This document shows positions 1-33,628 of a stretch of 35,743 bases of DNA, piece by piece (the first letter of the stretch is position 1; every line of letters begins with the position of its first letter). The DNA comes from Thermoanaerobaculia bacterium. GTDB lineage: Bacteria; Acidobacteriota; Thermoanaerobaculia; Multivoradales; UBA5704. Position numbers and translations under genes: made by a program. The stretch covers positions 1 through 35,743 of the forward strand of contig DASUNJ010000528.1 in assembly GCA_036277235.1 (NCBI GenBank), given 5' to 3'. The notes under the pieces are model-generated. The model searched no databases and was not told the DNA's origin. It saw nothing but the letters and a program-made list of their open reading frames with translations.

Positions 1-625
1 GCCGCGCCGCCGGCTCGCCGACCTTGGCAATCAGGTGGGCGCGCACGATCTCGAAGCTGTGGTTGAGACTCAGGTTGAGAGCCATCAGCTTGCCCCAGGC
101 CAGCGAATCGACGGGCGTCCACGGACGGGGCTCGATCCCGAGGATCGTGAGCTCGACCGGCAGCCGGCCGCGGTGGGCCGAGATGTAGGCGTTCACCCCG
201 TCGGCGTAGGCGGTGAGCAGGGCGCGGGTGGCAGGAGAGAGCGCCTGCCAGTCCCGCTCGGCGGCCTGCACGACGCCGAAGGTGCGCATGATCTTGTCGA
301 TTTCGAGGGCGCCTGCGCCGAAGACCGCGGAGAGCTCCCCGCGGCCGGCGTAGGCATTGAGCTGCATCTGCCAGAGCCGGTCCTGGGCGTGCACGTACCC
401 CTGGGCGAAGAAGAGGTCATGGGCGCTTTGCGCGTAGATGTGGGGGATGCCAGGCTCGACCCGCACGATCTCGACCGGCGCCTCGAGGCCGGGAACCGTG
501 AGGCGGCCTTCGACCTCAGGATAAGCGCGGCGCACGAGCCAGAAGAAGACCAGGCCGAGGATCACGATCAACCCCACCAGGACGACGGCAGTCCAGCGCA
601 GAAGCTTCCACAGGCGGGATTTCAT
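1..625 (-). CDS. Penicillin acylase / N-acyl-homoserine-lactone acylase family (Ntn hydrolase, PvdQ-like) protein. Only the N-terminal ~208 codons are present; the 3' end lies beyond the window start.
   Basis: Not in the ORF track because no stop codon falls in the window. My translation of the minus strand from the ATG at 625-623 gives MKSRLWKLLRWTAVVLVGLIVILGLVFFWLVRRAYPEVEGRLTVPGLEAPVEIVRVEPGIPHIYAQSAHDLFFAQGYVHAQDRLWQMQLNAYAGRGELSAVFG... It has an N-terminal hydrophobic signal/anchor followed by the GIPHIYA...DLFFAQGYVHAQDRLWQM block I recognise as typical of the penicillin-amidase (S45) family. The ATG overlaps the TGA of the upstream NRPS (ATGA at 622-625), which implies translational coupling. 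Confidence 0.8.
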   Translation of the reverse strand, partial: MKSRLWKLLRWTAVVLVGLIVILGLVFFWLVRRAYPEVEGRLTVPGLEAPVEIVRVEPGIPHIYAQSAHDLFFAQGYVHAQDRLWQMQLNAYAGRGELSAVFGAGALEIDKIMRTFGVVQAAERDWQALSPATRALLTAYADGVNAYISAHRGRLPVELTILGIEPRPWTPVDSLAWGKLMALNLSLNHSFEIVRAHLIAKVGEPAAR

Positions 626-32700: not shown

Positions 32701-33628
32701 CGCGGCGGAAGCCGCACTCGGCGAAGGCGGCGGCGAATCGGTCGAGCGTGGCGGCCCGCACCGGCTCGGCGCCGTTGAACGCCACCTGCCAGCTCGACAG
32801 GTCGAGCTCCCGCTTCTGCTCCGCGGAGACCTGCGCGGCGCACAGGTCGTAGGCGAAGTTGGGGCCGCCGCTCACCGTGGCCCGCGTGCGGGAGATCGCC
32901 TGCAGCCAGCGCAGCGGCCGCTGCAGGAAGGACACCGGCGCCATCAGGACGACCGGGTAATCGGCGTAGAGCGGCTCGAGGATGCCGCCGATCAGGCCCA
33001 TGTCGTGGTACGGCGGCAGCCAGAAGACGGTCCGGTCCTGCGGCGTCAGGGAGAAGCCGTCGCGGATCAGGCGCAGGTTGTGAAGGAGGTTGCCGTGGTC
33101 GAGCACCACCCCCTTGGGCTCGGCGGTGGAGCCGGAGGTGTACTGGAGGAAGGCCGCCGTGTCCGCGGTGACTTCCTCGTTGAGCCAGGAGCCGCCGGTC
33201 TCCAGCTCCTCCAGAGGCACGGTGGTGACCTCGGGACCGAGCTGCGCGCCCACGCGCGGCACGAGCGGGCCGGGGGCGAGAGCGAGCTTCGCCTGGGCGC
33301 TCGCCCGGATGGCCAGGAGGCGCGGCATGGGCCGGTTGGGACGCGGGGGGTAAACCGGCACCGCCGTGGCGCCCGCGTAGAGGCAGCCCAGGAAGGCGAC
33401 GATGTAGTTGAGGCCCGGCGGATAGAGGAGGAGCACCCTCTCCCCCTCCGCTCCCAGATGCTGCAGCCCGGCCGCGACGGCGCTCGCCCGCCGGTCGAGC
33501 GCCGCATAGGTGAGCTGTTGCTCCTCGCCCTCGCCGTCCACGAGGAACGTGTACACCACTGCCTCAGGACGCTCGCCCGCACGTTGGCGGACCAGCTCAG
33601 GCAGGGTACGAGGGGTGAATTCAGACAC
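23783..33628 (-). CDS. Hybrid NRPS-PKS initiation megasynthase: FAAL-ACP-C-A-T-KS(Ser variant)-AT-KR-carrier
   Basis: 3281-codon ORF with a GTG start at 33628 and GGGAGG 7 nt upstream.
- FAAL: LTYAALDRRASAVAAGL, LQYTSGSTAEPKGV, YLRTGDLGF, GRLKDLLILRGRNHYPQDLE.
- ACP: YPLDSL.
- C domain: FHHIVVDLWS.
- A domain: CAIYTSGSTGTPKG, NGYGLTE, YRTGDL, VKVRGFRIEPDEIE, PTGKVD.
- T domain: FDLGGHSL.
- KS: IAIIGMAGRFPG, VQTASSTSL, ECHGTAT, TNIGHL.
- AT: LLSGQGSQ, GHSLGE, HAFH.
- KR: TGGLGGLG ... ADYVAAN.
- Carrier: FELGGNSL. Confidence 0.97.
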   Translation of the reverse strand: MSEFTPRTLPELVRQRAGERPEAVVYTFLVDGEGEEQQLTYAALDRRASAVAAGLQHLGAEGERVLLLYPPGLNYIVAFLGCLYAGATAVPVYPPRPNRPMPRLLAIRASAQAKLALAPGPLVPRVGAQLGPEVTTVPLEELETGGSWLNEEVTADTAAFLQYTSGSTAEPKGVVLDHGNLLHNLRLIRDGFSLTPQDRTVFWLPPYHDMGLIGGILEPLYADYPVVLMAPVSFLQRPLRWLQAISRTRATVSGGPNFAYDLCAAQVSAEQKRELDLSSWQVAFNGAEPVRAATLDRFAAAFAECGFRREAFMPCYGLAEATLLVSTGPRASGAVVRRFDTGELERHRVLEVSAEEDGRTLVGSGARQPGHEIAIVDASGAPSAPGEVGEIWVRGPSVARGYWNRPEITASTFGAQLPRVGEDTEGPYLRTGDLGFLAGGELFVTGRLKDLLILRGRNHYPQDLEATVEASHAALRSGHGAAFAVNVEGAEGEERLVVVQEVERTRRHGDLGEVVTAIRGALAEEHEVQAHAVALLPPGALPKTSSGKVQRHAAKAAFLAGSLDSVWTWQETGAETAAPDETPADGAAEWLAAELARRARLSRAEIDAQRPLAEYPLDSLQVVQLLHAVEARWGFALPLDRFFDGLTLADLARFLEQPAPAQPTSAPQRVGPEHGDHPLAHNQLSLWFLHQLDPLSPAYNVPSAVRLRGPVDADGLRRSFQALVDRHATLRTTFPIVDGEPRQRVAESATVWFTEEDATEALSDRLAERLAEEARRPFDLSAGPLLRVILFREAEDAVLFVAFHHIVVDLWSLGILLEELGSLYPAPHPQAPSPIPSQPPGEGETALRYTDAVAWQRERLAGPEGERLWAWWQERLGGDLPTLSLRTDRPRPMVQTYSGATFSRALDPRLTGRIKEIGRRRQSTSFVTLAAAFEVLLHRITGDDDLLLGTVAHGRSDAALARVVGYFVDALVLRAGFGGDPSFAAFLDAARRDVLGAFEHQGLPFPLLVERLQPERDSSRSPLFQVLCVWQRAELADGQDLTGFALGVPAVVDLGGLRLESVPLDLGLAQFDLTLSLGETGGSLIADFDYNTDLFDAVTVERLAERFAILLEGIAAGPDCPVSALPLLTAAEERQLLVELNGTGADFPREASLADLVAEQAESTPEAVAVICGEDSLTYGELQRRAGRLAGHLVGMGIEPEELVAVCCERSPDLVVASLGALMAGAAYLPLDPEEPAERLAAILEDAGVRRVVSQEEMRPRLPAGLEVLTLESGVKDVKDGKDSKDTKDVLDPLSPLRPLGPLAPSAGGGTLACAIYTSGSTGTPKGVLLTHRSLVNLVGSFVESYQPGGEDRILPLTSIAHASFLGELYPLLCSGGAVVLPRRRELLEREARLELIRRHRVTIVSTVPSMAADLNARRDELPHVRLLLVGGEALAVADVDRLLATAEIVNGYGLTETAVCSTIHRLRPADLAGRRLPVGRPVRNTQVYVLDRGLRLLPPGAAGELYVAGEGLARGYLGDPARTAERFLPNPFSDGERMYRTGDLCLWLPDGDLECLGRVDQQVKVRGFRIEPDEIEAVLSQHPKVRDAAVALHQDASGRPRLAAWVVPGEPTLTSGEVLAFLRERLPEPMVPAAVVFLDELPTGPTGKVDLRKLPAPPAPGDGAGKTGGVPRSSLERRIAEVWREVLNVESVGIHDNFFDLGGHSLMLTRLHARLQEVLGQELALVTLYQFPTVSALAESLAGSGAVPAPAARRGRSGTEGREIAIIGMAGRFPGASSVPDLWRNVTAGIESIRRFSDEELLAAGTDPALVGNPNYVKAKGILGDVELFDAHFFGLNPREVELMDPQHRIFLECCWEAMERAAIDPDRYPGPVGVFAGESMNTYMLMNLLPHMELVASAETLQASLGNDKDPLTSRVAYKLNLKGPTLTVQTASSTSLSAVHTACRFLLQGDCDMALAGGVSIHLPEVSGYMFEEGGTTARDGHCRAFDAQATGFVSGHGAGVVVLKRLADALADGDHIHAVIKGSACNNDGSLKVSFMAPSVEGQVDVYTRAYEDAGVSPETVSYVECHGTATAMGDPIEITSLTRAFAAHTERKGFCAIGSLKTNIGHLDTAAGVAGLIKAALALEHKTLPASLHFESPNPRIDFANSPFFVNAATRPWEVEAGPRRAGVTSLGMGGTNVHMVLEEPPPRPATTASRPWQLFLLSAKSPKALDTLTLRVADHLESDPSLDPADVAWSLQVGRKPLAFRRMLLAADREEAAGRLSTLDPEHVLTAAAPPGDRPVAFLLSGQGSQYPNMGRGLYDAEPSFRDDVDLCCQLLQPHLGLDLRELLFVEEEAMGTAGERLQQTALAQPALFVIAYATARLWMSWGVRPAALLGHSLGEYVAACLAGVISLEDALAVVALRGRLMQRMPPGAMLAVPLREEEVLPLLGERLALAAVNGPSACVVSGPVDAVEALREQLENTDGLTCRRLHTSHAFHSSMMDPILPPLRERLRKARLSPPRIPYLSNVTGTWILPEEATDPEYWVRQLRQAVRFADGAAVLLEEPRRILVEVGPGDALATMARRHPARGPEHTVISSLRHPKEPEPDQRYLLSALGRLWLAGGTVSWEGFYARERRQRTPLPTYPFERLRYWVDPGTDAKAAAPQKKGRRELADWFWVPGWKQAALPGVPWGGAAAAAPASWLVFLDGCGLGAQLVERLEAAGHRVATVRAGSRFQHLGPQAFEIDPGREEDYELLLSSLGEPPTRALHLWNVGSEASLDLSFYSLVFLGKALVKRGGDAPFALGVVADGLHTVTGEEQVEPLKAALLGPCAVLPREHPWLTCRVLDISLGARAADQILAEMEGAPVEPVIAWRRHLRWAPHFEPTPLPERPAPLRHQGVYLLTGGLGGLGLALARHLAGAVQARLVLVGRSSVPERDAWDAWIAAHGEDDRTSRRLRQLQALEEQGAEVLTVAADVTDREQMRAARAAAEARFGAVHGVIHAAGVPGMGMLRGKTRDEASRVLAPKVDGTLALHAAFSGAAGAGLDFFVLFSSITAALPEIGQADYVAANSFLDAFARRAGAAGENILSIGWDAWRESGMAVETEVPKELAAWRRRTLAQGLTDAEGVEAFSRVLAAGLPEVIVSTLDLAARRAENARPVSLEEIQESAAGEEPAMLYPRSLATPYMPPEGDLERQIAEVWQEILGVDKVGALDNFFELGGNSLAGIRVTRHLRERFGVSLSDVSLDEASTVRALARLLAPPSAEPAEAEDESRSRGERRRKRLAERRTPGSGA
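29715..29809. repeat. 95-bp imperfect palindrome built from five 9-bp units (core AAGGAC) per arm, lying in frame inside the adenylation domain of the first megasynthase
   Basis: The plus strand reads ggtgCCAAAGGAC CTAAAGGAC GTAAAGGAC TTAAAGGAT CAAGGAC|GTCCTTGGT GTCCTTTGA GTCCTTTCC GTCCTTTAC GTCCTTTAcgcc, with the symmetry centre at 29761/29762 (AAGGAC|GTCCTT). About 40 of ~47 arm positions are complementary. I count 47/95 G+C, against a surrounding gene that is far more GC-rich. On the coding (minus) strand it translates as VKD VKD GKD SKD TKD VLD PLS PLR PLG PL. Confidence 0.9.

Follow-up and report, generated by a model that had tools for sequence, protein, structure and literature searches.

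A conserved FAAL-primed hybrid NRPS-PKS cluster of uncultured Acidobacteriota with a divergent AdoMetDC-fold gene and non-canonical assembly-line features

Lipopeptides are deacylated by PvdQ, Tem25 and GdnD, and in the pyoverdine (PvdL, PvdQ) and telomycin (Tem25) systems a fatty acyl group is introduced at chain initiation and an N-terminal nucleophile (Ntn) hydrolase of the penicillin acylase family, predicted to be extracytoplasmic, is encoded with the synthetases. A different type of example is the chain end of glidonin (C13-A*-T13-TE; C, A, T and TE here standing for condensation, adenylation, thiolation and thioesterase domains), where free putrescine is coupled to the peptidyl thioester by the terminal C domain, and release is not the task of the TE that comes after it. 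Other amine-terminated nonribosomal peptides, those like rhabdopeptide/xenortide and vibriobactin with its VibH, also have an active C domain at the end of the line. Also pertinent are the cyanobacterial and myxobacterial lipopeptide clusters in which a fatty acyl-AMP ligase (FAAL) primes a line combining a nonribosomal peptide synthetase (NRPS) with a polyketide synthase (PKS), the puwainaphycin and laxaphycin types being examples. Features of all of these meet in the six genes considered here, geneA to geneF, on a contig of Thermoanaerobaculia bacterium (assembly GCA_036277235.1, contig DASUNJ010000528.1). The contig is complete at 35,743 nucleotides (nt) and is called the window below. As judged from its domains, the cluster probably makes a hybrid lipopeptide-polyketide. 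The reading preferred here, with slightly less than an even chance in our estimation, is that the product would be exported in acylated form and then deacylated, with amine or branch chemistry at the last C domain (C5).

It is almost certain that we are dealing with a conserved and functional NRPS-PKS cluster. Every large open reading frame (ORF) with coherent domain content lies on the minus strand of the window, whose G+C content is ~72%: geneA (33628-23783, 3281 amino acids), geneB (23655-23206, 149 amino acids), geneC (23102-20688, 804 amino acids), geneD (20680-14348, 2110 amino acids), geneE (14364-622, 4580 amino acids) and geneF (1..625, start at 625), of which the left end of the contig leaves just the first 208 amino acids. 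By coordinates, the gaps are 127 nt (A-B, presupposing that geneB starts at ATG 23655), 103 nt (B-C) and 7 nt (C-D), and the overlaps 17 nt (D-E) and 4 nt (E-F). A Pfam scan, together with self-BLAST placement of each domain, gave FAAL-ACP-C-A-T-KS-AT-KR-ACP for geneA (ACP, acyl carrier protein; KS, ketosynthase; AT, acyltransferase; KR, ketoreductase), KS-AT-ACP-C-A-T for geneD, A-T-C-A-T-C-A-T-C-A-T-C-TE for geneE, AdoMet_dc for geneB, CBM9_1 plus DUF5916 for geneC and Penicil_amidase for geneF. Neighbouring genes of one direction combine C, A and T with KS, AT and ACP domains, all at Pfam scores far over the cut-offs, which makes the line an NRPS-PKS hybrid. A preliminary description of this DNA had given the same six genes with the same junctions and exactly this domain order, and its view of the locus as a FAAL-primed hybrid is borne out by the Pfam domains and by the structure matches of the FAAL. 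It had also taken the genes to form one transcription unit. The tight junctions, and the lack of any terminator-like site on the coding strand in the 127-nt and 103-nt gaps, make a single operon plausible, co-transcription itself being a prediction from sequence. G+C at third codon positions (GC3) is 0.85-0.94 across every gene, which supports a single origin for the cluster genes. A dip in G+C at 20-24 kb had prompted consideration of a foreign origin for geneB and geneC; this was rejected, as GC3 is uniform and the dip stems from codon positions 1 and 2, the only ones that differ.

The N-terminal domain of geneA (residues 1-580) clearly falls, by its matches, in the FAAL class. Its best match in the PDB is 7r7e-g at 608 bits, followed by 3kxw, FadD32, FadD28 and FadD23, with 3pbk also matched, and it carries a DIP2-like C-terminal domain. 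Behind it come an ACP, C (676-1137), A (1158-1650), T, KS (1763-2140), AT (2288-2584), KR (2885-3084) and a further ACP, the protein having three PP-binding stretches. Like the FAAL-primed clusters mentioned above, the line starts from FAAL-ACP and goes on to a mixture of PKS and NRPS modules. Unlike the puwainaphycin and laxaphycin types, however, it places a C-A-T module ahead of its first KS, in which Ser stands for Cys, and its conserved set extends to an acylase, a decarboxylase and an outer-membrane barrel (the activities and location of these being predicted).

Asp235 is conserved in all A domains that activate alpha-amino acids. The geneA A domain (28679..30157, minus strand; code ASGSLGGVCK) lacks it, having Ala at position 235 with Lys517 kept, and so stands outside the alpha-amino-acid-activating type; the code is identical in the orthologous loci L001, L007, L008 and L009. 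This A domain also has a low-complexity insert, VKDVKDGKDSKDTKDVLDPLSPLRPLGPLAPS (residues ~1297-1330, window about 29640-29740), which is first Lys/Asp-rich and then Pro/Leu-rich and lies directly ahead of the SGSTGTPKG motif. In the KS of the same protein the active-site codon is TCG (27824..27826, minus strand), giving Ser1935 where the catalytic Cys is expected (VQTASSTSL). Both His residues are present, and the Cys-His-His triad is thus incomplete by its Cys. The Ser-containing motif is common to the window, L001/L002, L007, L008 and L009. The KS of geneD keeps its Cys (VQCACSTSL) and with it the full triad. Ketosynthases changed from Cys to Ser lose most condensation activity and retain some decarboxylase activity. 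The KR domain in the module of the geneA KS argues, by domain content, for a beta-keto group being formed there. Literature searches gave nothing usable as a precedent for a KS of this kind. Since the A codes and the Ser of the KS are identical across the orthologs, selection is indicated. Two ketide units had been predicted earlier; two KS-AT modules (geneA and geneD) are indeed present, with the count made uncertain by the Ser that the geneA KS has in every ortholog. As for the ATs, the GHSLGE motif is malonyl-like in both, but the second specificity motif is FAGH in that of geneD (residues ~542-841) as against the malonyl-type HAFH in that of geneA, so that the geneD extender unit is uncertain.

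The codes of the remaining A domains were aligned on GrsA, with the numbering checked at D235 and K517. That of geneD, DNETIGTIGK, suggests a basic, Lys/Arg-like residue in that it resembles the BacB Lys signature DAESIGSV and the Arg pattern with its Glu239. In geneE, A2 (DAWFVGAICK) and A4 (DAWFIGHVVK) are related to the Leu code DAWFLGNVVK. A1 and A3 of geneE share the code DLFNNALTYK, which we take to be of Ala type. No candidate for an epimerase domain or a dual E/C domain was retained: no epimerase domain was found, and the HHxxxD motif occurs once in every C domain (C subtypes not having been assigned).

At the junction of the two NRPS genes, geneD ends with a T domain and geneE starts with an A domain, with no C domain between them, and the same holds in L008 and L009. 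At the other end of geneE, C5 (1678..2961, minus strand) has an intact HHIIVDG motif and no carrier domain after it, and is joined through a low-complexity linker of ~75 amino acids to a TE (682..1446, minus strand) with GGWSLGG, an intact GxSxG. Inspection of the stretch from C5 to the TE for a degenerate T domain revealed none. The assembly line is accordingly one C domain short at the geneD-geneE junction and has one to spare before the TE. As geneE is without a C domain that could take over the geneD chain and has an extra one before its TE, the line is not simply colinear, and a product derived by summing the modules in order, as had been done, does not follow. Like glidonin, the window line has a C domain with intact motif near its end and a TE after it. 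Unlike in glidonin, C5 is followed directly by the TE, with neither A* nor T, and the cluster encodes a predicted AdoMetDC-fold decarboxylase (AdoMetDC, S-adenosylmethionine decarboxylase) of which glidonin has no counterpart, the amine donor here being a presumed one.

Searching for homologs of the acylase fragment and of the C-TE end gave mainly short partial proteins, and a metagenome scan with the acylase fragment yielded L071-L075, at 84-56% identity. These five loci, and likewise L069 and L070, all end in T-C-TE and then the acylase. In L074 (2784-3779) the TE is a separate ORF overlapping the end of the NRPS gene, and in L071 (5946-9965) the last module is C-T-C-TE, without an A domain. 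Given that the TE can be split off and the A domain missing, the constant feature of the synthetase end is the terminal T-C.

Related loci were annotated by tblastn with the window's own domains. At least four further lineages (L001, L007, L008 and L009) have the gene set, with geneB identity of 74-91% and one rearrangement. In the L008 genome the cluster is found entire on an 8.4-Mb contig (CAVUHL010000003.1). L007, L008 and L009 (geneB identity 91%, 89% and 79%) have the order geneA, geneB, geneC, geneD and the start of geneE. L001-L003 (geneB identity 74%) are rearranged to a gene for a major facilitator superfamily (MFS) transporter on the minus strand, a cytochrome P450 gene on the plus strand, geneB, geneA and geneC. 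Since geneB and geneC remain with the synthetase genes despite the rearrangement, they are counted as pathway members, in agreement with the earlier proposal that the AdoMetDC-fold and CBM9/DUF5916 genes belong to the accessory set.

The protein from geneF is an Ntn hydrolase of the penicillin acylase family with an N-terminal hydrophobic membrane anchor. It matches PF01804 at 205.7 bits (cut-off 21.3), and the full-length ortholog in L069, 810 amino acids long, aligns from its residue 260 to beta chains at their residue 1. By analogy it may work like PvdQ, though it is not a PvdQ. What the locus has in common with the pyoverdine and telomycin systems is the acylation at initiation and the hydrolase encoded with the synthetases, itself predicted to be extracytoplasmic. 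What sets it apart is that the acylase is not a PvdQ ortholog, its best PDB match being a D-succinylase, that the line combines NRPS with PKS and has no residues of chromophore or siderophore type, and that the host is acidobacterial. The pairing of an acyl handle with a dedicated acylase, which had been regarded as unusual, is thus a known logic, met with PvdQ, Tem25 and GdnD.

In both L069 and L071 the acylase gene is followed by an EntS-like MFS_3 transporter gene on the opposite strand and then by a cytochrome P450 gene. In L001 a pair of MFS and P450 genes stands directly before geneB, and the P450 of L071 is 83% identical to the one beside geneB in L001, so that an exporter and a P450 adjoin the cluster in three independent contigs (L001, L069 and L071). 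Sequence searches and the ORF list showed no MbtH, MFS, ABC, P450 or phosphopantetheinyl transferase (PPTase)-like gene within the 35,743 nt. The window being the whole contig, absence of an exporter or oxidase from it is uninformative about the region past the acylase. Given the gene order in L069 and L071, it is rather an effect of the contig end, and by comparison with these loci the exporter and P450 genes most likely sit just past the left end. The preliminary description was therefore right that neither an exporter nor a tailoring oxidase is visible here, but orthologous contigs carry MFS_3 and P450 genes. A nitrating P450 of TxtE type was considered and rejected, the PDB neighbours being CYP51-like and terpenoid P450s. 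Convergent with the cluster P450 gene of L071 is a gene (16106-19945, minus strand) for a protein of 1279 amino acids, the last ~360 of which form a nitric oxide synthase (NOS) oxygenase domain (505 bits). Its first ~900 amino acids have no Pfam match, and the protein was met in L071 only.

Where passage through the outer membrane is concerned, attention is drawn to geneC (20688..23102, minus strand), whose ATG is preceded by GAAGGAGGAACGATCCC. It encodes a signal peptide, a Pro/Glu-rich linker, a CBM9-like domain and a large DUF5916 outer-membrane beta-barrel. Both domains score above their Pfam cut-offs, DUF5916 at 44.7 against 22.6 and CBM9_1 at 30.1 against 23.4. An AlphaFold2 model built from a 42-sequence alignment reached a predicted local distance difference test score (pLDDT) of 84, the single sequence giving a pLDDT of 30. 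With Foldseek, the model matched the CBM9 sandwich 1i82 (TMt 0.74), and its barrel showed a generic resemblance, at TM about 0.3, to LptD, TonB-dependent transporters and MtrB. The protein is accordingly predicted, in part from a model, to be an outer-membrane beta-barrel protein. No mention of DUF5916 was found in the literature searched.

The most distinctive of the accessory genes is geneB (23206..23655, minus strand), for a putatively pyruvoyl-dependent AdoMetDC-fold protein with the motif ES-IHT-DVYSC. The longest ORF begins at GTG 23775, but ATG 23655 is preceded by AAGGGAGGAATC and gives 149 amino acids, within the 147-155 of the homologs. Exact look-ups of geneB, with either start, and of geneC returned no record. 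The match to PF02675 is 56.4 bits (cut-off 25), and among solved structures an AdoMetDC, PDB 2iii, is matched at E = 0.006 only, with the Glu-Ser cleavage site aligned. E81, S82, H87 and C102 are invariant in 25 sequences of the family, which has 64 invariant positions in all. In its ~150-amino-acid length, PF02675 membership, Glu-Ser site and retained His and Cys the protein resembles class 1 AdoMetDC/SpeD, SpeDC and SpeDA, and self-cleavage at the Glu-Ser site is putative. It is, however, very divergent, reaching 39.8 bits with the SpeD equivalog model TIGR03330 against a cut-off of 75.65. The gene and its homologs are also placed within NRPS or hydrazine-synthetase loci, with no polyamine genes nearby. 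No SpeE-like aminopropyltransferase turned up when a reference set was used to screen the window and the 62 genome loci (L007-L068) whose geneB context was examined.

All 62 of these loci are from Acidobacteriota of the Thermoanaerobaculia/Holophagales group, the closest homologs coming from Thermoanaerobaculia metagenome-assembled genomes, one at 99% identity. In 41 of the 62 the homolog is directly beside a fusion gene joining a cupin domain to one that resembles methionyl-tRNA synthetase (MetRS); it is beside a Lys/Orn N-hydroxylase gene in 35, beside one for a DAO-type oxidase in 27, and touches any of these or an NRPS gene in 52. An N-hydroxylase, a cupin-MetRS hydrazine synthetase and a DAO-type oxidase together make up a described hydrazine-forming cassette (Spb38/Spb40/Spb39). 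Cassette-linked homologs include L006, L010, L014, L015, L017-L019, L021 and L023. In such loci, e.g. L006 (6557-11915), the geneB-type gene comes directly after the N-hydroxylase and cupin-MetRS genes and next to that for the oxidase, and NRPS and MacB-type genes are often near. Among the papers found, none on the cassette speaks of a decarboxylase partner. The cluster type of the window accounts for three of the 62. In L012 (8921-10450) and L033 (6846-8372), which are non-biosynthetic loci, the homolog starts 4 nt after a gene with a protein-kinase domain. Taken together, the surroundings suggest that geneB is a marker of specialised metabolism in the Thermoanaerobaculia/Holophagales lineage, its context alone not revealing its substrate. 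AdoMetDC-fold enzymes have evolved into ornithine and arginine decarboxylases, and since such decarboxylases exist, supply of an amine by geneB is a reasonable guess.

On the preferred reading, the FAAL would load a fatty (or other) acid onto the first ACP, and the first C domain, C1, would couple the acyl chain to an unusual unit that is not a standard alpha-amino acid, the A domain lacking Asp235. Up to two malonyl-derived units would then be added, the first KS working with its Ser, and a basic (Lys/Arg-like) residue would be incorporated. Starting on its own A-T, geneE would build an (Ala-hydrophobic)x2 tetrapeptide, which C5 would either join to the lipid-polyketide arm or release onto an amine, with the AdoMetDC-fold enzyme as the decarboxylase giving that amine or an omega-amino building block. 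Alternatively, C5 could attach the geneE tetrapeptide to the geneD-bound basic residue through the amine of its side chain, and the TE would then release or cyclise a branched product. The MFS pump would export the acylated product, the membrane-anchored periplasmic Ntn acylase would strip off the acyl handle, and the CBM9/DUF5916 barrel would provide passage through the outer membrane. That export comes before deacylation is suggested by the combination of an MFS exporter in the orthologs, an anchored acylase and an outer-membrane barrel. By analogy with pyoverdine, telomycin and glidonin, each logical element of this scheme has a precedent.

Several points weigh against such a scheme. Product and enzyme activities are predicted and every chemical step is inferred. 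The nearest solved relatives of the acylase are D-succinylase (7eby, E = 3e-86) and glutaryl-7-ACA acylase (about 2e-59), enzymes that remove short dicarboxylic acyl groups, and PvdQ structures match it at E = 1e-17 to 1e-12 only. With the PvdQ equivalog model NF051460 the window fragment scores 27.9 bits and the full-length L069 protein 65.5 bits against a cut-off of 950. The KS with Ser may be incapable of condensation. The DUF5916 family is huge (22,690 representative clusters) and not specific to biosynthetic clusters. The reading of the A-domain codes depends on the GrsA sequence taken as reference, which is presumed correct and whose numbering agreed. A general need for geneB is possible, as there is one copy per genome and its neighbours in 10 of the 62 genomes are ordinary genes, such as those for a protein kinase and for aspartokinase-homoserine dehydrogenase, or purA. 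Finally, the substrate of geneB may be unrelated to chain release, given the link to the cassette in 41 of 62 genomes and the absence of the cassette from the window, where tblastn found none of the hydrazine-synthetase genes.

A bolder extension, which we consider somewhat unlikely, is that geneB forms a branch of the AdoMetDC fold with a new function, that of a pyruvoyl enzyme dedicated to specialised metabolism in Thermoanaerobaculia. It would be an unrecognised fourth member of the widespread hydrazine-synthetase cassette and would here supply an amine or omega-amino unit to a non-colinear line with a Ser-containing KS, DUF5916 barrels being dedicated outer-membrane conduits.

Two of the considerations on geneB, its single copy and its occasional place among ordinary genes, would fit if geneB and geneC were just neighbours, encoding a general polyamine-type decarboxylase and an ordinary outer-membrane protein, with the acylase serving self-protection or quorum quenching and the synthetases alone defining a product that the TE releases. 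How common DUF5916 proteins are, and the intact GxSxG of the TE, fit this as well, and so does the fact that GdnD and Tem25 may naturally serve in detoxification. Yet the two genes lie between synthetase genes at junctions of 7-127 nt, with their own ribosome-binding sites and no terminators, and both stay with geneA after the reordering in L001. Moreover, a hydrazine-synthetase, DAO or NRPS gene adjoins the geneB homolog in 52 of the 62 cases, and geneB falls short of the SpeD equivalog model. We therefore hold this explanation to be unlikely.

The likelihood is lower again, in our estimation, for a siderophore made in pyoverdine style, in which the acyl group would anchor the precursor during periplasmic maturation, the acylase would free it, an EntS-like MFS protein would export it and the DUF5916 barrel would be its outer-membrane exporter or receptor. 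A FAAL, a periplasmic Ntn acylase and an MFS_3 transporter of the EntS family do mirror the logic of pyoverdine and other acylated peptidic siderophores, and the geneC barrel has weak fold matches to TonB-dependent siderophore receptors. These are, however, at TM-scores of only about 0.3, no better than LptD. Also, no A code points to hydroxamate, catecholate or beta-hydroxy-Asp ligands, and neither an N-hydroxylase, a TauD-like enzyme, a TonB-dependent receptor nor a Fur-type context was seen in the window or the related loci.

The least probable of the readings, and a very unlikely one, is that geneB takes part in N-N or N-O chemistry, the cluster installing a hydrazine-, nitroso- or nitro-type group by way of the P450 (and, in L071, the NOS-domain protein) instead of the cassette and the Asp235-less A domain loading the modified unit: the adjacency of geneB homologs to the cassette genes, the P450 conserved beside the cluster, the 1279-amino-acid protein of L071 and the NOS-guided N-N chemistry known from the literature speak for it, but that protein was seen at just one locus and on the opposite strand, the P450 is unlike TxtE, hydrazines should on general chemical reasoning react with a pyruvoyl cofactor, and the window has no hydrazine-synthetase genes.

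As to how far the export-and-deacylate reading concerns something new, limited literature searches (by taxon, DUF5916 and A-domain codes) found no characterised counterpart, in line with what had been claimed earlier, and no precedent for the combination as a whole, the Ser-containing KS, the A domain lacking Asp235, the C domain out of place, the dedicated AdoMetDC-fold gene or the DUF5916 barrel. Orphan NRPS-PKS clusters are very common in uncultured soil bacteria, and from this perspective the cluster is another orphan and not a new kind of system. What mainly distinguishes it is the geneB family and the non-canonical features of the assembly line, both of which are directly testable. Soils are rich in acidobacteria, very few of whose natural products have so far been identified, and conservation over several uncultured lineages makes the cluster a reasonable target for synthesis and heterologous expression. 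For enzymology there are the questions of what a highly conserved, very divergent AdoMetDC-fold enzyme does in NRPS and hydrazine-synthetase loci and of whether a modular KS can function with Ser for Cys. How a product is formed with a C domain missing at a gene junction and a spare one before the TE is a question of assembly, and the function of the very large family of DUF5916 barrels is another to which the locus is relevant. Answers would extend current ideas, with none of them overturned.

Upstream of geneA is a non-coding region of 792 nt (33629..34420, minus strand; 59% GC), the presumed promoter and leader, in which GGAGG, as ribosome-binding site, precedes the GTG from which geneA starts. 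No Rfam family, riboswitch or other known RNA, matched in these 792 nt, and no sigma-70 consensus site was found in them. Beyond them, in the part of the window upstream of geneA (33629-35743), there is a plus-strand ORF of 166 amino acids with no family match, and next to it a hybrid histidine kinase/receiver protein, of which the contig end leaves the C-terminal part.

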